From positions 22,374 to 86,373 of the forward strand of contig JASHNQ010000050.1 in the NCBI GenBank assembly GCA_030041545.1: a stretch of 64,000 nt of DNA, read 5' to 3'. The translations under genes were made by a program, and so were the position numbers. This DNA is from a candidate division FCPU426 bacterium. Lineage in GTDB: Bacteria; Oederibacteriota; Muellerivitia; Muellerivitales; Muellerivitaceae. This document shows positions 20,961-52,277 of the stretch, piece after piece (position 1 is the stretch's first letter; each line of letters starts with the position of its first letter). Under the pieces are notes generated by a model. It did not search any database. It was not told the DNA's origin and saw only the letters and a program-made list of their open reading frames with translations.

Positions 20961-22823
20961 CTATGGGCCGCCCGCCTTTTTATGGAGCATTTGGCGCGTG
21001 GCTTCCAGGATGCGGGCCACCGGCTTTCGCCGGTAGTCCCACCGGGGATCGGGGCCGGGCGGGGTGACGTTCATGCAGGCATTGGCTTCGTAAAGCAGCA
21101 GGTTGCCTTCCCCGTCCAGGCCGAAATCAACGCCAGCGTAATCGAGGGCCAATTGGTCCCGGATAGCCTCCAGGGCCCGGAAGGCCCGTTCCCCGATGGC
21201 GGACCTCGTGTCGCCAAGGAATGCCTGGTCCTCAGCCCGGTTTTCAGGGTGGTCGTCCATGTCGGCGGTGAAATAATGCACCTTCCAATCCCCGGAGAGG
21301 GCCAAGTGGGCCGGGTAAAGTTCCCCGCCGATCATCATGACCCGGTATTTCCGCGTCTTCCCGTCCTTGCCCCGGCCGTCCAGGTAACGCAGGACGGTCA
21401 GCACTGATCCGGGAAGGGACGCCACCGCCAGGGCCAGGTCCTTTTCGTTGGAAACCAGGCGGAAATAACGGCCCAAGTGGTATCCCGGCGAGCGCAGGAG
21501 GAACGGATAGGAAAACCCCCTCCTGGCGACTTCGGTGTAACCGTCCGGTTTCGCCAGCAGCTCCTTGGGCAGGTTGACGATGTCGGGGGTGACGACGCCC
21601 TTAATCCCTCGCAGGCGCACCGCGTTTTCGGCGCGGCCCGTGGCCAGCACCCGGGAAGGCGGGTTGACGACGGGCGCCCTCGACCGGGCCAGGATGGTTT
21701 GGACGGCGCGCAGGGCGGGGCGGCAAAGGTCGGCCTCCCCGACGCAGTTGACCGCCAGGCGGTGCGGGGGAAGGGGCTGGGTGGGGTCGTAAAAATCGGT
21801 CACAATCACGGAGGGAAGGAAAGTCCCGTCGTCCATCATTTTGAGGAAGGGACCGTTGTTGTCGAACGTGGAGGTTAAGAGAAGCACCGGCAAAGGCCGG
21901 GGTTCGCCGCGCCGGGGCTTGGCCCCGGCCGCCGTGTCCCCGGGAGGCCCGCCTTCCGGAGGCGGCAGGAGGGACAGGGCCTGGCGGGCCTCTGGACAAT
22001 CGGCCTGAAGTTCCAGGACCTTCGCGTACTGGGCGCGAGCCGCCTCGGTCTTTCCTTTTTCCCGCAGCAGGCCGGCCAGGGTCAAATGTCCCTGGACGTT
22101 TCCGGGGTGGTGCCTCAGCGCCTCGGGGAGGGCCAACAGGAAAAACCCATCGGGATCGTCCGTCTTTCCCGGCAGGGAGGGCGAAAGTTCCAGGACCCGC
22201 CCATAGGCCAGCCGCGCTTCATCGTCCCGGCCCAGTTCCTTAAGCAGTCGCGCCCGGTAAAAATGGGCTTCCACGTCGTCGGGGGACGCCCTCAGCCGTG
22301 CGTCCGCCTCCTCGAGGGCCGCCAGCCGCGACACCCGCAGCATTTCCTTCGTCGCCTCCGATACGGCTTCAAACCGTTGCCGGGCGGCCGCCGGGTCCTC
22401 GGGCTTTAATTGCACGTTGGAAAGCCGGCGCAACCGCCCCAAAAGCACCTGCCGCCTGACCGCGAAGGCCAGCCTGCGCCCAAGGGAATCCGCGTCCCTG
22501 TCCATCTTGGTCAGGCAGTCCACGGCGCCATCCTGCAGGGCGCGGAAGGACAACTTGACATCCTTGTCCGTGAGGACGATGGAAGGCGCCCCTGGGGCCA
22601 AGGTTTGGACTTCCAGGAAAAAGGGGAGGCTGTCCTGCCCGGGCAGGTCCACGGCGATGAAGTCGGGGGCCCTTTCCCCGATGGCCCGCCGGACGTCCTC
22701 CAGGCCTTGAAGGTGGAGGAATTCCACATCCTCGTCCCTGATCCGGGAAAGGACCTCTTTCCAAAAATCGGCGTCGCGTCCGCTTTCCTGGAGGAAATAG
22801 CACCGAATGGGGCTTGCGTTCAT
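20961..22823 (-). CDS. receiver (REC) + TPR + ATP-grasp (RimK-like) fusion protein, paralogue 1
   Basis: N-terminal CheY-like domain with acceptor context PDFIAVDLPG; central TPR repeats; C-terminal ATP-grasp motifs YRVMMIGGELYPA...VDFGLDGEGNLLLYEANACM. Confidence 0.7.
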   Translation of the reverse strand: MNASPIRCYFLQESGRDADFWKEVLSRIRDEDVEFLHLQGLEDVRRAIGERAPDFIAVDLPGQDSLPFFLEVQTLAPGAPSIVLTDKDVKLSFRALQDGAVDCLTKMDRDADSLGRRLAFAVRRQVLLGRLRRLSNVQLKPEDPAAARQRFEAVSEATKEMLRVSRLAALEEADARLRASPDDVEAHFYRARLLKELGRDDEARLAYGRVLELSPSLPGKTDDPDGFFLLALPEALRHHPGNVQGHLTLAGLLREKGKTEAARAQYAKVLELQADCPEARQALSLLPPPEGGPPGDTAAGAKPRRGEPRPLPVLLLTSTFDNNGPFLKMMDDGTFLPSVIVTDFYDPTQPLPPHRLAVNCVGEADLCRPALRAVQTILARSRAPVVNPPSRVLATGRAENAVRLRGIKGVVTPDIVNLPKELLAKPDGYTEVARRGFSYPFLLRSPGYHLGRYFRLVSNEKDLALAVASLPGSVLTVLRYLDGRGKDGKTRKYRVMMIGGELYPAHLALSGDWKVHYFTADMDDHPENRAEDQAFLGDTRSAIGERAFRALEAIRDQLALDYAGVDFGLDGEGNLLLYEANACMNVTPPGPDPRWDYRRKPVARILEATRQMLHKKAGGP

Positions 22824-23049: not shown

Positions 23050-25137
23050 ATGTTTACCTGCCAAACGCTATATCGGGAAAAGCGTTTGGTGCAACTCGAC
23101 AACGCGAACATGGGTAAGCGGCTTCATTTTGGGGGCCAACCACCCGCGTCTGGGGATGGCGCTTGGGCCGGGTCCAAGCCAGGTAAGGGTTCCACTTTTG
23201 GGGGAACTGGCCAGCCGGACGGGTTTGGCGAGGCGGAAATCATCGAAATCCTCAACAGGCTCAAAACGAAACGGGAACCATCCTTCCCCGCCCTTTCTTC
23301 CATCCCGTCATGGGAGCCGGTAGGGGCTGCCTGCTTTCTCTTGGTTTCGGCGGTTTTCCTCTTTTATCTTCCCGTCTTAAGGAACCCCTTCGTCAACTGG
23401 GACGACATGGATTGCATCGCGGGCAACCCCCACCTCCGCCGCTTGGATATTCAAAACCTGTCATGGATGTTGACGACCTACTACTCGGGGAATTGGCTGC
23501 CGCTGACTTGGCTTTCTTTCGCGATGGATTACCTCTGGGGCGGGCTGGATCCCCGGGCTTACCACGCCACGAACGTCGTCCTCCACGGCCTTAATACCCT
23601 CCTTGTTTTCCTTGTTTGCCGGAAAATCCTCGAACAGGCGGTGGACGGAAAAAAGGAGGATGCCGGCCCCAAAGTCCCCGCTTATCCGGCGGCTTTCCTG
23701 GCGGCCCTTTTATTCGGGTTGCACCCCATCCACGTGGAGTCCGTGGCTTGGGCCGCCGAGCGAAAGGATGTGCTTTACGCTTTTTTCTACCTGGCGGCCA
23801 TGGGGCTTTATCTCCAGGGCCCCTCCCCACTGGATTGGAAAAAACCCAAGCCCTGGGCCTTGTTGGGGCTTTACTCGCTGGCCCTGATGTCCAAACCCAT
23901 GGCCGTCACCCTTCCCTTGGTCTTTTTAATCCTGGATTATTGGCCGCTGGCGCGCCCCTCAACGGACGGCTTAAAACCCCTCGCCGAAAAAGCGCCCTTT
24001 TTCGCCTTGGGCCTAGCGGACGGGCTGGCGGCGATCCAATCCCACGGAAGCGCGATCGTATCCACCGGCGGCTCGGCCCAGGTCCTATGGTCGTTCAACG
24101 CCTTTCGCGCCCCGGTCTTTTATCTGTGGAAAATGGCCGTGCCCCGCCACCTGGTTCCGTTGTACCCCTTCCCCCCCGGGACCAACCCCGCGTTCCAATG
24201 GGAATCCTACGCGGCCGCACTGCTGGTGGCCGGGACCGCCGCCGTCCTCTACCGTTTCCGAAAGCAAATCCCTTATGCCGCGGCCGCGGGGCTGTACTAC
24301 CTGGCGACCCTGGCGCCTGTTTTGGGTTTCCTGCAAATCGGAAGCCAGGCGGCGGCGGACCGTTATACTTACCTTCCCAGTTTGGGCGTCTTCCTTCCTT
24401 TTTCCGCCGGCGTGGCGTTCCTGCTGCGCAGGCGCCGGTGGGCGCTGGGATTTCTCACGGCCCTTTTGGCCTTGGCGCTGGGGCTGGCAACCATGGCCCA
24501 AATCAGCCTTTGGAGAAATTCGGAAATCCTTTGGGAAAGCGTGGTTCGGGCCTATCCCGGCTGGTCATCGGTGGCCTATACCTACTTGGGCGTCACCTAC
24601 ACGCGGGAGAAAAAATGGCCGCAAGCCCAGGCGGCGCTGCGGCAGGCCCTTTCCATTCCCCCTCCCCTGGCCGTCACCCACCAGGCTTATGGCCTCCTTC
24701 TTCTTTATTTAGGGAGGTTGGACGACGCCATCGGTGAATTCAAGGAAGCCCTTGCGCTCAACCCCGAATTCGTCCTGGCTTACCAAAACCTATGGGTGGT
24801 CTATGAGCACCTGGGAAGGCATGGGGAAGCCCTGGCCCAGATCAAGGAGGCGGTCCGGCTGGAGCCCCAAAACGCGGATTTTACCCGCGATATGGGGGAA
24901 AGCAACCTGGCATTGGGGCGCTATGGGGAGGCGGAGACGGCCTTTCAACGGGCCCTGGAGCTGGACGCCCATTCCGCGCAGAGCCTGGTGGATTTGGCAA
25001 CGCTTCGCCTCCAACAAGGCCGCCCCGGGGAAGCCCGGGGCTTGCTCAAGGCCGCGTCGGCCTTGAACCCCCAGGACCCCCGGACCCTCCGGGAAATGGA
25101 GGAGGATTCCCAAAAAGCCGGCCCTGCCACCCGCTGA
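23050..25137 (+). CDS. TMTC/PMT-like (GT39-type) integral membrane glycosyltransferase with C-terminal TPR repeats
   Basis: Multiple TM helices; NPFVNWDDMDCIAGNPHL motif (DUF1736/TMTC-like); C-terminal TPR array; AGGAGA 8 nt upstream of ATG. Confidence 0.65.
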   Translation: MFTCQTLYREKRLVQLDNANMGKRLHFGGQPPASGDGAWAGSKPGKGSTFGGTGQPDGFGEAEIIEILNRLKTKREPSFPALSSIPSWEPVGAACFLLVSAVFLFYLPVLRNPFVNWDDMDCIAGNPHLRRLDIQNLSWMLTTYYSGNWLPLTWLSFAMDYLWGGLDPRAYHATNVVLHGLNTLLVFLVCRKILEQAVDGKKEDAGPKVPAYPAAFLAALLFGLHPIHVESVAWAAERKDVLYAFFYLAAMGLYLQGPSPLDWKKPKPWALLGLYSLALMSKPMAVTLPLVFLILDYWPLARPSTDGLKPLAEKAPFFALGLADGLAAIQSHGSAIVSTGGSAQVLWSFNAFRAPVFYLWKMAVPRHLVPLYPFPPGTNPAFQWESYAAALLVAGTAAVLYRFRKQIPYAAAAGLYYLATLAPVLGFLQIGSQAAADRYTYLPSLGVFLPFSAGVAFLLRRRRWALGFLTALLALALGLATMAQISLWRNSEILWESVVRAYPGWSSVAYTYLGVTYTREKKWPQAQAALRQALSIPPPLAVTHQAYGLLLLYLGRLDDAIGEFKEALALNPEFVLAYQNLWVVYEHLGRHGEALAQIKEAVRLEPQNADFTRDMGESNLALGRYGEAETAFQRALELDAHSAQSLVDLATLRLQQGRPGEARGLLKAASALNPQDPRTLREMEEDSQKAGPATR

Positions 25138-25178
25138 TGGGTTGGGAAAGTACAAGCCTTGAGGGGTGACTCCGCGAC

Positions 25179-27041
25179 CTATGGGCCGGCCGCCCTTTGA
25201 TGGAGCATTTGGCGCGTGGCTTCCAGGATTCGGGCCACCGGCTTTCGCCGGTAGTCCCACCGGGGGTCGGGCTCGGGAGGGGCGACCGTCATGCAGGCAT
25301 TGGCTTCGTAAAGCAGCAGGTTGCCTTCCCCGTCCAGGCCGAAATCAACGCCCGCGTAATCGAGGGCCAATTGGTCCCGGATAGCCTCCAGGGCCTGGAA
25401 GGCCCGCTCCCCGATGGCGGACCTCATGTCGCCAAGGAAAGCCTCGTCCTCGGCCCGGTTTTCAGGGTGGTCGTCCATGTCGGCGGTGAAATAATGCACC
25501 TTCCAATCCCCGGAGAGGGCCAAGTGGGCCGGGTAAAGCTCCCCGCCGATCATCATGACCCGGTATTTCCGCGTCTTCCCGTCCTTGCCCCGGCCGTCCA
25601 GGTAACGCAGGACGTTCAGCTCCTTTCCGGGAAAGGACGCCACCGCCAGGGCCAGGTCCCTTTCATTGGAAACCATGCGGAAATAACGGCCCAGGTGGTA
25701 GCCCGGTGAGCGCAGCAGGAAGGGATAGGAAAACCCCCTCTGGACGACTTCGGCGTAACCGTCCGGTTTCGCCAACAGGTCCTTGGGCAGGCTGACGATG
25801 TCGGCAGTGACGACGCCCTTAATCCCACGCAGGCGCACCGCGTTTTCGGCGCGGCTGGTGGCCAGCACCAAGGAGGGCGGGTTGACGACGGGCGCCTTGG
25901 ACCGGGCCAGGATGGCTTGGGCGGCGCGCAGGGAGGGGCCGCAAAGGTCCGCGTCCCCGACGCAGTTGACCGCCAGGCGGTGCGGGGGGAGAAGCTTGTC
26001 GGGGTCATAAAATTCGGTCACGATCGCCAAGGGGAGGAAGGTCCCGTCGCCCAGCATTTGGTACAAGGGACAATTGCCGTCGAGCGTGGTTAACAACAGC
26101 ACCGGCAAAGGCCGGGGTTCGCCGCGCCGGGGCTTGGCCCCGGCCGCCGTGTCCCCGGGAGGCCCGCCTTCCGGCGGCGGCAGGAGGGCCAGGGCCTGGC
26201 GGGCCCCTGGACAATCGGCCTGAAGTTCCAGGACCTTCGCGTACTGGGCGCGAGCCGCCTCGGTCTTTCCTTTTTCCCGCAGCAGGCCGGCCAGGGTCAA
26301 ATGTCCCTGGACGTTTCCGGGGTGGTGCCTCAGCGCCTCGGGGAGGGCCGACAGGAAAAACCCGCCGGGATCGCCTGTCGTTCCCAACCAGGAAGGCGCA
26401 AGTTCCAGGACCCGCCCATAGGCCAGCCGCGCCTCATCGTCCCGGCCCAGTTCCTTAAGCAGTCGCGCCCGGTAAAAATGGGCTTTCACGTCGTCGGGGG
26501 ACGCCGCCAGCCGCGATTCCCTCTCTTCGAGGGCCGCCAGCCGCGTCACCCGCATGGTTTCCTTCGCCGCCTCCAATACGGCCTCCCTCCATTGCCGGGC
26601 GGCCGCCGGGTCCGCCGGCCTCGCTTCTGGGGTGTAAAGCCGGTACAAACGCCTCAAAAGGACCTGCCGCCGGGCCCAAAGGGCCAGCCTACGCCCAAGC
26701 GAATCCACCTCCCCTTCCCCCATGACCAGGCAGTCCTCGGCGCCCTCCTGTCGGACGTGGAAGGACAACTTAGGATCGCCATTTTCCGTGACGGCGATGA
26801 AAGGCGACTCGGGGGCCAAGGTTTGGACTTCCAGGAAAAAGGGGAGGCTTTCCTGCCCGGACAGGTGCACGGCGATGACGTCGGGGGTCCTTTCCCCGAT
26901 GGCCCGCCGGGCATCCTCCAGGCCTTGGAGGTGGGGGAATTCCATGTCCTCGTCCCTGATCCGGGAAAGGACTTCTTTCCAAAATTCGGTGTTGCGTCCG
27001 CTTTCCTGGAGGAAATAGCACCGAATGGGGTTTGCGCGCAT
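25179..27041 (-). CDS. receiver (REC) + TPR + ATP-grasp fusion protein, paralogue 2 (acceptor Asp replaced by His)
   Basis: About 95% nucleotide identity to 20961..22823 over most of its length; N-terminal region diverged (PDVIAVHLSG instead of PDFIAVDLPG); start set at MRANPIRCYFL by homology to paralogue 1. Confidence 0.7.
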   Translation of the reverse strand: MRANPIRCYFLQESGRNTEFWKEVLSRIRDEDMEFPHLQGLEDARRAIGERTPDVIAVHLSGQESLPFFLEVQTLAPESPFIAVTENGDPKLSFHVRQEGAEDCLVMGEGEVDSLGRRLALWARRQVLLRRLYRLYTPEARPADPAAARQWREAVLEAAKETMRVTRLAALEERESRLAASPDDVKAHFYRARLLKELGRDDEARLAYGRVLELAPSWLGTTGDPGGFFLSALPEALRHHPGNVQGHLTLAGLLREKGKTEAARAQYAKVLELQADCPGARQALALLPPPEGGPPGDTAAGAKPRRGEPRPLPVLLLTTLDGNCPLYQMLGDGTFLPLAIVTEFYDPDKLLPPHRLAVNCVGDADLCGPSLRAAQAILARSKAPVVNPPSLVLATSRAENAVRLRGIKGVVTADIVSLPKDLLAKPDGYAEVVQRGFSYPFLLRSPGYHLGRYFRMVSNERDLALAVASFPGKELNVLRYLDGRGKDGKTRKYRVMMIGGELYPAHLALSGDWKVHYFTADMDDHPENRAEDEAFLGDMRSAIGERAFQALEAIRDQLALDYAGVDFGLDGEGNLLLYEANACMTVAPPEPDPRWDYRRKPVARILEATRQMLHQRAAGP

Positions 27042-27140
27042 TTTGAGCGTTCCGGTCCGCCGTTGAGGGTGGTTTTCAGGTAACATCCATGTTTCGGGAA
27101 ACCGCCCTGGAAAACCTTATTTTACTTTCCGGCAAGAGGA

Positions 27141-27587
27141 CTAGGACGGAAAATCTCCGATCCACCTGAGGGCCACCGGAGCGCCCTTGAGCCGCTTGAG
27201 GAGTTTTTGGTCCGCAGTCACCAGGGGCGCCTTCAGTTCCTCGGCCAGGGCCAGGTAGCAGGCGTCATAGGCCGTCACTTCCCATTCAAGGGCCAGGTCC
27301 AGGGCCCGGGGCGCCAGCAGGGCGGTGGAAACGGCCTTCAACCCCAACTGCCGCAAGGCGGAAATGTCCTTGAGGGCGTCCGAGGGGGAATAACCCGAAT
27401 GGCGGACATATTTCCAAAGGATATTAGCGCACTCCGCGTAGAACAGGTCGGGAACATGGGGCTGGAAATGGGGTTCCCCCCCAATGGCCTGGAAAAGCGT
27501 TTTAGCCTGGGGCGAATGTTCCTCCGCCACAAAAAGCTTGGCCCCCACGCTGGCGTCCACCACTAGATGGGGCGGGAGGCCGCTCAC
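27141..27587 (-). CDS. vapC: type II toxin VapC (PIN domain ribonuclease)
   Basis: PIN-domain acidic residues (LVVDASV...AYDACYLALAEEL...VTAD); overlaps the upstream antitoxin gene by 4 nt. Confidence 0.75.
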   Translation of the reverse strand: MSGLPPHLVVDASVGAKLFVAEEHSPQAKTLFQAIGGEPHFQPHVPDLFYAECANILWKYVRHSGYSPSDALKDISALRQLGLKAVSTALLAPRALDLALEWEVTAYDACYLALAEELKAPLVTADQKLLKRLKGAPVALRWIGDFPS

Positions 27588-27832
27588 CGTCCCCTGTCTT
27601 CCCTCAAAAGGTCCAAGCTGGTGGGAGCCCCTGGTTTCAGTTTCCGCTTGGCCCTTCGTTTGAGGATTCCATCAAGGGCCTTCTTATGGTTGTAAACGGC
27701 CTGTTCCTCATGCACGGCGTTGCCCAGCAAATGGACGACTTCCGAGTTGAAGGAACGGCTTTGTTCCTCGGCTAATTTTTTGATGTCCCGGTAAAGTGGC
27801 TCAGGGACGTTTCGCACGTGTAAGATCGGCAT
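27584..27832 (-). CDS. vapB: ribbon-helix-helix antitoxin (VapB/FitA-like)
   Basis: MPILHVRNVPEPLYRDIKKLAEEQSRSFNSEVVHLL RHH fold; ATG preceded by AAGGAGA. Confidence 0.65.
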   Translation of the reverse strand: MPILHVRNVPEPLYRDIKKLAEEQSRSFNSEVVHLLGNAVHEEQAVYNHKKALDGILKRRAKRKLKPGAPTSLDLLREDRGR

Positions 27833-28020
27833 GGCGTCTCCTTTCCTGGAAGTTAGGGCCATTATCGGGGGTTTGGTTGCATTATGCAACCAGGAAGAGG
27901 GCCCGCCGATCGCGCATGGGAAATCAACGGCAAAAGATGTTTTGGGCCAAGAGGATTATCTTATTTCTTTTTTCAGGCCCGACCCTTTTCCCCCGCCTTG
28001 AGGAGCGAGGCTGAGCCCTT

Positions 28021-28392
28021 TTATTGGCTCTCGCCGCCGGGGGTGCCGTGATAAAGGCCGGTGGTCAGGAACCAGCCGCTGACCGTGGCGCCCGCGGAAT
28101 TCACCCCGGTCTGCTGGTTCAAATCGTAGTGGTACACCGGAACCCCGCCACTGTAGGGCGTCACGGTGGTCTCACCCCCACAGGCATAACGGATTTCGGG
28201 AACAAATAAAATTACCTGTAATCCCCAACCATGATCCATGGATTGGGGCGTATCAAACCCCAGTACCTCCGACCCGGTATCCAAACGGCCGGCGGAATAC
28301 GCCAAATCCGGGAATTGGCCCTCCAGGACAGGTTTTACAGCCTCCTGAAAAAATCCCTCGCAAAGCCGCATCCCTTTTTCAAACCTCGGCAT
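28021..28392 (-). CDS. hypothetical protein with degenerate minimal nucleotidyltransferase-like motif
   Basis: GSEVLGFDTPQSMDHG resembles the GS..G....SD.D MNT motif with substitutions; AGGGAG RBS present; possibly a truncated remnant. Confidence 0.4.
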   Translation of the reverse strand: MPRFEKGMRLCEGFFQEAVKPVLEGQFPDLAYSAGRLDTGSEVLGFDTPQSMDHGWGLQVILFVPEIRYACGGETTVTPYSGGVPVYHYDLNQQTGVNSAGATVSGWFLTTGLYHGTPGGESQ

Positions 28393-28439
28393 TTTGGCTC
28401 CCTGAAAACTACCTGTTCTACGACTTTTCCTGTAGAGTA

Positions 28440-29310
28440 GGGCACTGGCGCATATGCGTTAGAATCCGGTGGCTTTTCCAACCCTTTAGGATTGGGCCTC
28501 AGTCCGGCTTTCTTGGCTATGTTTCCAGCGCCCCCTCATCAGTACGTGACCTTTTCGATCATACGGCTTTCCGACAACCTTTCCTCCGTCGGCTTTGCGG
28601 GTTCTGCTTTCTCTTGGCCGCTCGGCATAGTTCTTGTTGAAGATTACGCGCTTTTGTCCTTCAGAGTTGTTAGCCGTTTCCGGCATTCTCCAGCGCCACC
28701 CTTCTTGAATGCACGTGGTTGAAGCAGGGGACCTTCCCTCGGGAGAGGTTTTGTTGTCCTCCCCCTCTAAGCGGTACTATTTCCCCCTCCGACTTCCTCC
28801 CGTCACGCCTCCCTTTCGGTCGCCCTTATAGGAGCCGCTCTTTTAACGGGTAGGATCTCCCAGGTTGATGCATGAGCCTTTTCAGCGTTCCGCTCCCCAT
28901 ACGCCGGAGGATTTGCCTCACCCAATCCTGTTTCAGGGTGAGATTGTTGCCTTCGCCGGTGGACACGCGGCTCGGCCTCCCCTGTAGCCTTTCGGCGGAC
29001 TCTTCACGACGCGGCAGGATTCACTTCATGTTGCGGACTGCGGAGTTGTTCCCTTCCTTTCGAAGGTTTATGACCTCGTTTCGGACAAAGCCTCTCGACT
29101 TTGCCACGGAGGCTGACTTCGGGGCCCTCAGGCGGTTACCCCGTCAGGACTTGGTCCATATCGAACCTCACCTGCTGGCTACTGCACCCTTGTTCCTGGC
29201 ACACTGTCCACGACGGGTCCCAATCGTGGACACTCAAAATCAGCTGTACCTTTTTACAACTTCCTCCGTCTCTTTTGAGGCTCATTCCCATCAATAGCTA
29301 TTTTCCAAAT
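28440..29310 (-). other. ORF-free, lower-GC region; candidate structured RNA or degenerate group II intron fragment (unresolved)
   Basis: ~0.9 kb with only short low-complexity ORFs; plus strand pyrimidine-rich, so the minus transcript would be purine-rich; reverse complement of ~28548..28582 reads AAGCCGUAUGAUCGAAAAGGUCACGUACUGAUG, partly matching the group II domain V consensus GAGCCGUAUGCGAUGAAAGUCGCACGUACGGUUC. Confidence 0.3.
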
Positions 29311-29312
29311 AT

Positions 29313-30389
29313 TTATCGGCTTCTCCTCAACGACCTTTTGACGGCCCCTTCCACCAGGTCCACGGTCAAGTCCATCATGCATTTGAAATGGCCCAACGGA
29401 CACCTGTTTTTACCGTGCGCGTCGCAGGGACGGCAGGGCAGGTTGGCGGCCTCCACCACCGTGTGGGGGCCCCAGGGCTCGAAACCCAATGAAGGGGTGG
29501 TGGAACCGTAAATCACCACCACCCGGCATCCGCGGCCCGAAGCCAGGTGGATGAGGCCCGAATCGTTGCCGACGAAAAGGTCGCAACGCCCTAAAAGCGT
29601 GATGGCCTGTTCCAAGGAATATTCTCCGGCCAGGTTGAGGCCCCGTTCCAAGGGCGTGCCGCGCATCTTGGCCTTGATGGACTCGATCAAGGGGGCTTCC
29701 TCCGGGCTTCCGAACCATAAAAGGGCGCAGCGGTAGTCCTCCACCAGGCGGGAGGCTAGCTCCGCGTACCGTTCGGGCATCCAGCGCTTGGTGTTCCACC
29801 TGGCGCCCGGCCCTAATCCGACAACCAGTTGGGAAGGGGAGATCCTTCGCCGTTCCAAGAACTCCCTTAAAAAAGACTGGTCCTTCCGGGAAACTGGGAG
29901 CTCGAATTTGATCTTCAGGTGGGGTTTCACCCCCAAGGGTTCCAGGATACGCAGGTATTTTTGGATCGTGTGGAGCCCCGCGCCGCCCGTCCGTTTTTTC
30001 ACCAGCAGCCTGCGCCGCGCCGCCTCGCTGTCATAGACCCAAAGCCGCGCCTTCCGGAGGAAAAGGGAAACGAGATGGCTCCTCCAAGAGTCGTGCAGGT
30101 CCAAAACCAGCGTGGGGTCCATGCGCCGGATTTCCTGGACATGCTCCCAAAAACGGAAGGGGCCCGGCCCTTCCAGGGGAATCACGCGGGTCAGGGCCGG
30201 ATGGTTCTGGAGGACGGGAACATACCGCCTTTTAGTGGCGAAATAAACCTGGGCGCGGGGGAAAGCCGCCAAAAGGCCGTCCAAGACTGGGTTGGCCAAA
30301 GCCACGTCGCCGAGGGAAGAGTACCTCATGACCAATATTCTGGGAATAGGGGCAGACACGGTTTTGTCGGCTTGGGATTTCGGAACCAT
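29313..30389 (-). CDS. glycosyltransferase family 9 (LPS heptosyltransferase-like)
   Basis: ILVMRYSSLGDVALANPVL N-terminal GT9 motif and GT9-like C-terminal half. Confidence 0.75.
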   Translation of the reverse strand: MVPKSQADKTVSAPIPRILVMRYSSLGDVALANPVLDGLLAAFPRAQVYFATKRRYVPVLQNHPALTRVIPLEGPGPFRFWEHVQEIRRMDPTLVLDLHDSWRSHLVSLFLRKARLWVYDSEAARRRLLVKKRTGGAGLHTIQKYLRILEPLGVKPHLKIKFELPVSRKDQSFLREFLERRRISPSQLVVGLGPGARWNTKRWMPERYAELASRLVEDYRCALLWFGSPEEAPLIESIKAKMRGTPLERGLNLAGEYSLEQAITLLGRCDLFVGNDSGLIHLASGRGCRVVVIYGSTTPSLGFEPWGPHTVVEAANLPCRPCDAHGKNRCPLGHFKCMMDLTVDLVEGAVKRSLRRSR

Positions 30390-51010: not shown

Positions 51011-51040
51011 TTTGTGGTTCAATGCCTTTGAAAATAAAAA

Positions 51041-51507
51041 AAGAAGCAGGTCATAAGCCGAATTCTGTTAAGTGTGATCATTTCTCTCGCGGGGTCCGTT
51101 GCCGGCCCCGTCGATGCGATCTTACCCGAAGGCCTCCCCTTCCCGTGAAGGAAAGGGATGGGACGGACCGCCCCAAAGCCTCCCTATTTGATCTTGCTCC
51201 GGATGGGGTTTGCCATGCCGCCCCACTTGCGTGGGGGCGCGGTGGGCTCTTACCCCACCTTTTCACCCTTACCCTTCGACTCGGCCTTACGGCCTCGCTC
51301 AGGGCGGGCCCCTTTAGGGAACCTGCTCTGGTCTCGCCAACGGGCGGTTTGTTTTCTGTGGCACTTTCCTTCAACCCAGTCCTCATCACCAAAGGTTAGA
51401 GGAAGGCTGGGCCGACCGGGCGTTACCCGGCATCCTGTCCTGCGGAGTTCGGACTTTCCTCACCCCCGGGCCCAAAAGGCCGGGAGCGCGATCACGGACC
51501 TGCTTCC
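51041..51507 (-). ncRNA. rnpB: RNase P RNA (bacterial type A)
   Basis: Minus-strand transcript: P1 GGAAGCAGGUCC pairs with GGACCUGCUUC; P4 5' strand GAGGAAAGUCCGAACUCC; GGGUAACGCC; P4 3' strand ACAGAAUUCGGCUUAUGACC; U-tract after the 3' end. Only spurious ORFs overlap. Confidence 0.85.
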
Positions 51508-51809: not shown

Positions 51810-52277
51810 TCAGGCTTTGGATTTGGGCTTGCGCGGAAGAGGACTGGAAAACAGTTGGAGGTCGGACCGTTCGACCCAGCCCATCCGTTTCCAAAACCGC
51901 CGGCCTTCCGCGTTGTTTTTGAAAACCATGAGATGGGTGCGCAAAACACCAGACCTTTCGAGTTTTTGGAGGCAAATCGAAGTCAGCCTCCTTCCCAAAC
52001 CACGGCGGCGGAAAGCCCTTGCCACGGCCAAGTGAAAGATGAACCCGCGCCTTCCATCGTGCCCCCCCAGGATGGTTCCCACCACCTTACGGCCCGATAC
52101 CGCCACCAGGCTGAGACCGGGATTGCGCTTGAGGTAACGGGCCAGGTTGGCCCGACTGTCCCCCCACAGTCCGATCCCTTTGGATTTCCGCCAGAGGTCG
52201 AAGGCCTGCGGGTAGTCGCCCGCCCTCATGAGCCGGATGGAAACGGGAGGATTTTCAGGCTTTCTCAAAGTGCCCAT
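51810..52277 (-). CDS. GNAT family N-acetyltransferase
   Basis: GNAT core motifs (..IFHLAVARAFRRRGLGRRL..); the start may instead be the internal ATG at 52229. Confidence 0.7.
   Translation of the reverse strand: MGTLRKPENPPVSIRLMRAGDYPQAFDLWRKSKGIGLWGDSRANLARYLKRNPGLSLVAVSGRKVVGTILGGHDGRRGFIFHLAVARAFRRRGLGRRLTSICLQKLERSGVLRTHLMVFKNNAEGRRFWKRMGWVERSDLQLFSSPLPRKPKSKA

Follow-up and report, generated by a model that had tools for sequence, protein, structure and literature searches.

We describe here a complete group II intron that lacks a protein gene, located in a 64-kb stretch of DNA (the window: positions 22,374 to 86,373 of contig JASHNQ010000050.1, assembly GCA_030041545.1) from a candidate division FCPU426 bacterium. 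As identified by comparison with related introns, the element occupies 773 nt of the minus strand (29204..28432; all coordinates are those of the window), has all six domains, and has lost the gene for its protein. It lies in an unannotated 0.9-kb intergenic block, which is thereby explained with no new RNA class. We consider it likely that the element is a crippled, complete and non-autonomous copy of a group II intron lineage without an open reading frame (ORF-less), damaged by a deletion of four nucleotides in domain V.

An initial annotation of this DNA had left three candidates for the block, a degenerate ORF-less group II intron remnant, a large non-coding RNA (ncRNA) or a decayed gene, and had proposed an Rfam scan, a blastn search for conservation and covariation analysis as checks. 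In an Rfam scan at gathering thresholds, RF02003 (group II intron D1-D4-4; gathering score 49) matched as a full model at 29162..29026 of the minus strand, scoring 64 bits with E = 1e-11. In a permissive scan, RF00029, which represents domains V and VI, was placed at 28571..28432 with 21.3 bits, under its gathering score of 40. This alignment, together with the collinearity of relatives, identifies the string AAGCCGUAUGAUCGAAAAGGUCACGUACUGAUG (28569..28537, minus strand), which had been described only as similar to domain V, as a true group II domain V. Homologous introns were found by blastn of plasmid records as partial matches to unannotated DNA beside ltrA (group II reverse transcriptase (RT)/maturase) genes in Streptomyces, E. 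coli, Paraburkholderia, Paenibacillus and Bacillus, and a sixth distant relative, a Planctomycetaceae intron, came from another scan. These six introns are each 1.93-1.99 kb in length, of which 640-790 nt is ribozyme, and with their ORFs removed they align with the window element from its 5' end to its 3' end. Together with five close relatives described below, they are collinear with it through domains I to VI (D1-D6), and both of its ends coincide with the ends of four of the close relatives (L039, L044A, L040 and L042) in end-to-end alignment. The termini follow the GUGYG ... AY form of group II introns, with GUGUG at 29204 (5' GUGUGCC) and UAC at 28432 (3' end ...CCCUACUCUAC). A consensus structure built from the six distant relatives alone has 125 pairs, and the window copy forms 100 of the 114 that could be scored (88%), the relatives themselves keeping 87-98%; of its helices only the lower stem of domain V fails, the window copy having gaps in four alignment columns there. 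The consensus structure derived from a family alignment of the window copy with its close relatives (A3) has 156 pairs, 28 of them with compensatory double changes, and the window copy, like its siblings, retains nearly all of these (153/156). The candidate of a degenerate ORF-less intron is therefore supported, with the RT gene precisely deleted and domain V damaged, but the element is a complete intron, not a fragment, and is one of an ORF-less lineage whose members have reached other sites.

The composition of the block could also be taken to indicate a different large structured ncRNA (GOLLD, HEARO, ROOL, OLE or a new class) that happens to carry a domain V-like hairpin. The region is ORF-free, its fold is more stable than that of shuffled sequences (z = -2.7), and its presumed RNA strand is rich in purines, as had been pointed out earlier: the minus strand of the element is 60.7% purine, and a content of at least 60% is reached in just 4 of 633 segments of the same size in the 64 kb. 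The GC content of 54-56% is below the window mean of 58%, so that the lower GC noted previously is real but slight. However, models of GOLLD, HEARO/omega RNA, ROOL, OLE and raiA gave no match in 27900-29800 at gathering score or at E<=10, and end-to-end collinearity with RT-encoding group II introns refutes such an origin, to which we attach virtually no probability. The RNase P RNA gene, rnpB, lies at 51039..51506 (Rfam), within the 51.0-51.5 kb interval already given for it.

The individual parts of the intron, all on the minus strand, can be assigned as follows. Domain I (28860..29199) contains the RF02003 match and co-varying helices, and is closed by the helix CCAGG/CCUGG. Its motif GGUGA|AAGUCC contains an inserted hairpin, GGUUCGAUAUGGACC (29167..29153), which is common to the close relatives and is as such a feature of the lineage, not damage. 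Domain II (28791..28859) has the consensus helices, with compensatory changes, and the J2/3 linker with domain III (28721..28790) forms the block most conserved among distant relatives, having 82% identity to the E. coli plasmid intron, with a co-varying inner helix in domain III (GGGGGAGG/CCUCUCCC). Domain IV (28575..28720; 146 nt) has no ORF and holds the frameshifted stump of an RT/maturase gene (ATG at 28686, ~90 nt), which shares homology with the N-terminal end of the relatives' intron-encoded protein (IEP): lying just 3' of domain III, it matches their ribosome-binding site, start codon and first ~30 codons. This homology rests on nucleotide alignment, protein alignment of the 66-aa ORF with IEPs being uninformative. 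The deletion junction is at ~28600/28596, the point at which L040 and L042 carry 1213 extra nucleotides, and is followed by the 3' strand of the basal stem of domain IV, GGUUG (28579..28575), which by eye co-varies among distant relatives. Domain VI (28435..28537) follows domain V and has a distal part expanded by ~75 nt, an expansion also present in L042, L044A, L040 and L039 and again a lineage feature rather than damage. All 13 of its basal pairs are canonical, 11 of them with more than one pair type among the relatives, and a bulged branch-point A at 28438, 7 nt from the 3' splice site (28432|28431), matches that of the relatives.

These assignments bear on the proposals that the block is a decayed protein-coding gene or that it contains a hammerhead ribozyme at 28521..28542, which together we regard as very improbable. 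The initial annotation had found no credible ORF in 28393-29312, and this stands: all internal ORFs are short, the longest being 141 aa, and none has a match in Pfam. A coding remnant does exist in the RT/maturase stump of domain IV, but this amounts to only ~12% of the block, and tblastn with four IEPs gave no match in the 64-kb window. A decayed host gene is accordingly refuted save for this small stump, which is itself part of the intron. The hammerhead-like string CUGAUGAG...GAAAC is indeed present at 28542..28521 (minus strand), as the initial annotation had reported. However, hammerhead models gave no match in a permissive Rfam scan at E<=10, no helix II is possible, and the bases concerned belong to the intron itself: in every relative GAUGAG and GGAAAC are conserved, as J5/6 linker and as the beginning of domain VI. 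The 'CU' that precedes GAUGAG in the window copy is a by-product of the deletion in domain V.

That deletion distinguishes the window copy from the rest of its family. In domain V (28538..28570) the upper stem, the GAAAA loop and the AC bulge are intact, but GGUU is absent between 28542 and 28541. The 3' strand of the domain reads ...CACGUACGGUUUGAUGAG (also given as ...CACGUACGGUUUGAUGAGG) in five of five siblings and six of six distant relatives; the window copy instead reads ...CACGUAC----UGAUGAG (CACGUAC----UGAUGAGG), and outside this 4-nt gap it is identical to its siblings. The deleted GGUU normally pairs with AGCC, within which the catalytic AGC triad lies; the triad (28568..28566) is thereby left with no pairing partners, and the UGAU that follows is the J5/6 linker. 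The AAGCC/GGUUU helix is canonical in all 11 family relatives and the deletion is private to the window copy; the imperfect lower stem remarked on previously is explained by this deletion, not by general decay. With RF00029 the window copy scores 21.3 bits and siblings that share its domain VI expansion 43.7-45.6 bits, and the lower helix is predicted not to form, the predicted folding energy being -8.4 kcal/mol as against -17.5 kcal/mol after restoration of GGUU in silico. A domain V helix of ~34 nt with paired AGC triad, 2-nt bulge and GNRA-like loop is found in every sibling and is lacking in the window copy, which by this comparison is a damaged member of the family, not a non-member. In group II introns it is the bulge and the paired triad of domain V that hold the metal ions needed for catalysis. 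Given this role, the loss of the triad's partners and of the J5/6 linker suggests that the copy is catalytically crippled, and judging by its sequence and predicted folding it is probably dead. In local folds the upstream GGUU of the domain IV stem could pair with AGCC and so rescue domain V; as the domain IV GGUUG is already committed to the co-varying basal stem, we treat this alternative pairing as coincidence. The window copy may be regarded as a natural single-lesion mutant of domain V.

The recognition of the target by the intron can be followed across several copies. The loop of exon-binding site 1 (EBS1) in domain I, UGUCCAC (28959..28965), pairs at seven of seven positions with intron-binding site 1 (IBS1), GUGGACA (29211..29205), which makes up the final 7 nt of the 5' exon and so borders directly on the 5' splice site. 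This pairing co-varies across six copies: EBS1 and IBS1 are UGUCCAA and UUGGACA in L039, UGUCAUA and UAUGACA in L044A, UGUCUUA and UAAGACA in L043, UGUCAUA and UGUGACA in L040 (with one G.U pair), and in L042 UGUCCAC and GUGGACA, as in the window copy. It is also found in the distant relatives L007 and L029. Since the co-varying pairing abuts the splice site, the 5' splice site is fixed at 29205|29204; and since the guide still matches the exon, the window copy would have arrived by reverse splicing, with the GGUU deletion most likely occurring after insertion. IBS1 of the window copy is the descending arm of a stable hairpin in the 5' exon (GUCCACGA-UUGGGACCCG-UCGUGGAC-A; 29205..29232, minus strand), with a folding energy of -15.7 kcal/mol. 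L042 is preceded by nearly the same hairpin and L039 by a diverged one, while the targets of L043, L044A and L040 have no hairpin; the distant relatives L029 and L032, which start with GCGUG, sit just after terminator hairpins with T-runs. The copies in L039, L040, L041, L043, L044, L042 and L044A start with GCGUG or UCGUG, GUGUG occurring among the close relatives only in the window copy.

The close relatives were found by an indirect route. The 141-aa ORF on the plus strand (28872..29297) is spurious and runs antisense to domain I; searched with as a protein, it gave matches to seven 'hypothetical proteins' at 69-88% identity, and a spurious antisense ORF thus recovered homologues of an RNA element that had escaped the DNA pattern scans. 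Two of the relatives, L040 and L042, are full-length introns, 83-85% identical to the window copy, and encode an IEP of 431 aa, an RT/maturase with RVT_1 and GIIM domains and without an endonuclease domain. The IEP is inserted exactly between positions 605 and 609 of the window intron, and cutting 1213 nt from either L040 or L042 recreates the ORF-less architecture. L039 is itself ORF-less, 93% identical, and lies in a 338-kb contig flanked by unrelated genes; L044A is an ORF-less copy, 84% identical, that directly abuts the 5' end of a full-length copy in L044. L043 and L041 are partial, with 5' ends only. The window copy, L039 and L044A therefore have one and the same deletion junction in different flanking DNA and in three samples. 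Identity in the IEP stump is 81-91% among the ORF-less copies, only 60-69% between these and the full-length copies, and 91% between L040 and L042, while over D1-D3 it is 84-94% in all pairs. The shared junction and this pattern of stump divergence indicate that the ORF-less form arose once and that its coding remnant then decayed, and comparison of the copies points to an ORF-less clade of single origin. The presence of one ORF-less form at three or more sites in three samples in turn implies mobility without a protein of its own. Intact-domain-V siblings (L039, L044A) and full-length copies (L040, L042) make up a small natural series with a co-varying 7-nt guide.

In L044 (1-1460, minus strand) the end of the ORF-less copy (...CUCUGC) is the exact start of the IEP-encoding copy (GCGUGCC...). 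The two share a 5' exon, with which EBS1 of the upstream copy pairs at 7/7 positions and that of the downstream copy at 6/7. A single site thus seems to have been hit more than once, by insertions that make hardly any demand on the 3' exon, and the tandem arrangement fits action in trans by co-resident copies that encode an IEP. ORF-less bacterial group II introns are rare, and are normally co-resident with related IEP-encoding copies that can act in trans (PMC4424553; PMC2504315). In a separate arrangement in L041 (525-2117, minus strand), a 530-aa RVT_1 gene is closely followed, on the same strand, by the 5' end of a sibling intron, with a terminator-like hairpin with a T-run before the intron (GGGGTGATT..., preceded by AAACCCCTTATTTTTGAAGGGG); this sibling was possibly inserted behind another retroelement.

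The favoured reading of the window copy suggests the following history. A full-length relative of ~1.98 kb, with an endonuclease-less RT/maturase of 431 aa encoded in domain IV, would have lost ~1213 nt of this gene. The resulting ORF-less element would have kept a working ribozyme and reached new sites, with RT/maturase presumably supplied in trans by full-length copies and with targeting by the 7-nt EBS1 guide, complementary to the final seven nucleotides of the 5' exon. Reverse splicing is likely to have placed the window copy at a synteny break, 108 nt downstream of a heptosyltransferase gene. Subsequent loss of GGUU from the 3' strand of domain V would have removed both the partners of the AGC triad and the J5/6 linker, abolishing or strongly reducing catalysis and leaving a stranded fossil in an intergenic transcript.

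Such a history resembles that of several described systems in part. The closest described kind, set beside our intron by description only, is the HYERs, which, as reported through PMC12990946 and bioRxiv 10.1101/2024.08.31.610620, are class IIC introns that lack an ORF, with ~7-bp recognition (Liu et al., Science 2024). Both are bacterial group II ribozymes of 640-780 nt without an ORF, have one recognition site, ~7 nt in length, and occur as several ORF-less copies at different sites (here three copies from three samples); both have autonomous relatives with an endonuclease-less RT/maturase, here one that among solved structures best matches the IIC RTs of GsI-IIC and E. rectale. In contrast to HYERs, the window copy has a private 4-nt deletion in domain V that makes an active endonuclease unlikely, and the triad of its lineage is AGC. 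ORF-less introns have attracted interest as compact, protein-free, programmable nucleases, as in the HYERs.

Membership of class IIC is likely on the present comparisons. Against solved RT structures the 431-aa IEP scores 229 and 219 bits with IIC RTs and 183 bits with an IIB RT. By eye, a GNRA hairpin occupies the expected position of the EBS2 loop, and further pointers to class IIC are the single EBS1, the insertion of some copies at the side of hairpins or terminators, and the little dependence on the 3' exon in the tandem. Insertion behind terminator or attC stem-loops is described for class IIC introns (Robart et al. 2007, as cited in PMC2504315 and PMC4424553). Our intron likewise lies downstream of a gene of the same orientation and adjoins the 3' side of a stable hairpin, L029 and L032 with their terminator hairpins conform to this pattern also, and the L044 tandem shares the little dependence on the 3' exon. 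Unlike in such stem-loop-targeting introns, IBS1 is here 7 nt long and lies inside the hairpin arm, not after it, and the targets of L043, L044A and L040 are without a hairpin.

ORF-less derivatives that co-reside with their full-length relatives provide a second comparison. In the B.c.I7 copies of B. cereus E33L the RT ORF has been reduced to 13 bp and 28 bp, and ORF-less introns are also known from Thermosynechococcus and Trichodesmium (PMC2504315, PMC2882425, PMC4424553). As in these derivatives, an internal deletion of the IEP has left short 5' and 3' stumps with a conserved ribozyme, near-identical junctions at several sites imply mobility in trans, and one ORF-less copy, in L044, abuts a full-length copy. 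The lineage described here differs in being older and more diverged (its ORF-less copies are 83-93% identical), in belonging to uncultured Gram-negative bacteria, and in having no helper copy within the 64-kb window. A third comparison is with degenerate group II remnants such as those of RmInt1 in Sinorhizobium (PMC4181065). The window copy is likewise stranded and probably non-functional, in an intergenic position beside a truncated gene and a toxin-antitoxin pair, but it is no fragment, having six domains, both splice sites and one small visible lesion.

Several observations weigh against the reading of the window copy as a crippled, non-autonomous class IIC-like intron. Its loss of catalysis is one that we infer from sequence and predicted folding, and two unrelated, apparently mobile natural lineages keep a lower helix of domain V with the same C.U and G.A pairs. 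These lineages, with domain I of the RF02005 type and of the RF01999 type (L006, L008, L013, L015 and L018; L007 on the minus strand, L010, L020, L022 and L026), have AGCC opposite UGA(U/C), that is UGAU or UGAC, and this helix persists across members that differ in their upper stem and domain VI. With RF00029 they score 34-55 bits, mostly above the gathering score. By this comparison a lower helix of the AGCC/UGAU type can apparently be functional and is not necessarily lethal. In addition, both large contig scans, of genomes and of metagenomes, used the pattern AGCCGTATGN{10,15}CACGTACTGA, which needs the deleted form of domain V; the intact pattern of the family is GGAAAGCCGTATGATCGAAAAGGTCACGTACGGTTTGATGAGGGGG, and intact siblings could not be found in this way. 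The 25 loci that these scans returned, the two natural lineages among them, were all unrelated to the element by blastn. Within the 64 kb and one contig of 2.8 kb, no IEP-encoding copy was seen in the same genome. The first two intron bases differ among copies (GU, GC, UC), from which an uncertainty of 2 nt in the 5' boundary could arise, although we consider this unlikely. Finally, the assignment to class IIC rests on indirect features, the margin of IIC over IIB in bits is modest, and the AGC triad speaks against this class, the triad of the O. iheyensis-type IIC ribozyme being CGC.

The two natural lineages raise in particular the alternative that the window copy is still an active ORF-less ribozyme, either a HYER-like hydrolytic endonuclease or an intron that can be mobilised in trans, with a shortened domain V that works. 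The helix left by the deletion (A-U, G.A, C-G, C.U) is the same as theirs, the parts of the intron outside domain V are preserved as well as in siblings, EBS1 still fits the exon at all seven positions, and hydrolytic activity is independent of the correct placement of domain VI. In contrast to both lineages, the window copy has no closing pairs under the A-U pair at the base of this helix and no J5/6 linker, which has been consumed. The deletion is moreover restricted to this copy, its lower helix is predicted not to form, and its RF00029 score is ~23 bits below those of siblings. As such, we regard continued activity as unlikely, and as somewhat less likely still the linked proposals that the ORF-less clade of the window copy, L039 and L044A is an undescribed HYER-like family with a retargetable 7-nt guide and that the shortened domain V is competent. 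If the shortened domain V does work, the triad helix and J5/6 linker would be far more plastic than textbook models allow. Two members of the natural lineages, L015 and the minus-strand intron of L007, look ORF-less, in that D1-D4 match only ~100-700 nt upstream of domain V.

The genomic setting of the crippled copy is that of accessory or decayed DNA. The interval 28393-29312 is the exact gap between two minus-strand ORFs, a family-9 glycosyltransferase (GT9) gene for a heptosyltransferase upstream (29313..30389) and a 123-aa ORF with no Pfam match downstream (28021..28392). In two related genomes (L034 and L036) the orthologous KdtA-LpxK-heptosyltransferase block leads straight into two or three more GT9 genes. 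Compared with these over ~25000-29312, homology of the window ends at the heptosyltransferase stop codon (29313), and the GT9 genes are replaced by the intron, the 123-aa gene fragment, a toxin-antitoxin pair and tetratricopeptide repeat (TPR) proteins. The loss of GT9 synteny after the heptosyltransferase stop places the intron at a synteny break amid such DNA. The toxin-antitoxin pair, which lies beside the intron, consists of a FitA-like ribbon-helix-helix (RHH) antitoxin (27584..27889, minus strand) and its partner, a PIN-domain toxin (27141..27587, minus strand); its proximity to the intron fits an accessory or mobile patch of DNA. No promoter-like site and no minus-strand terminator-like site was found in 27900..29500, and with no promoter-like site near the intron its transcription would be by read-through. 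An empty target site, sought through heptosyltransferase orthologues and through homologues of the 123-aa ORF, was not recovered.

Neither a second intron copy nor an IEP gene was found within the 64-kb window. Two short blastn matches near rnpB (51978-52048), considered as a possible second copy, are not significant and lie inside a 155-aa ORF (51810..52277, minus strand). Phage records searched by blastn and viral contigs scanned with the intact upper domain V yielded no relative. In the E. coli plasmid relative (L028:4525-4638), the 3' end of the intron and its downstream flank are overlapped by an Rfam match to the isrN small RNA (54 bits). A contig of a metagenome-assembled genome (L001; GCA_030051685.1, JASIPF010000242.1) is 100% identical to the window region and ends at 28768, inside domain III of the intron, which gives a weak hint that similar copies may confuse assembly at a repeat and is the sole pointer to additional copies in this genome. 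The 123-aa ORF downstream of the intron has only three homologues, which are distant and truncated and resemble it only in their first ~60 residues, diverging thereafter. It shares with them the motif GFDTPQSxDH, and from its alignment it looks like a truncated or decayed gene fragment, an N-terminal piece of a longer protein family.

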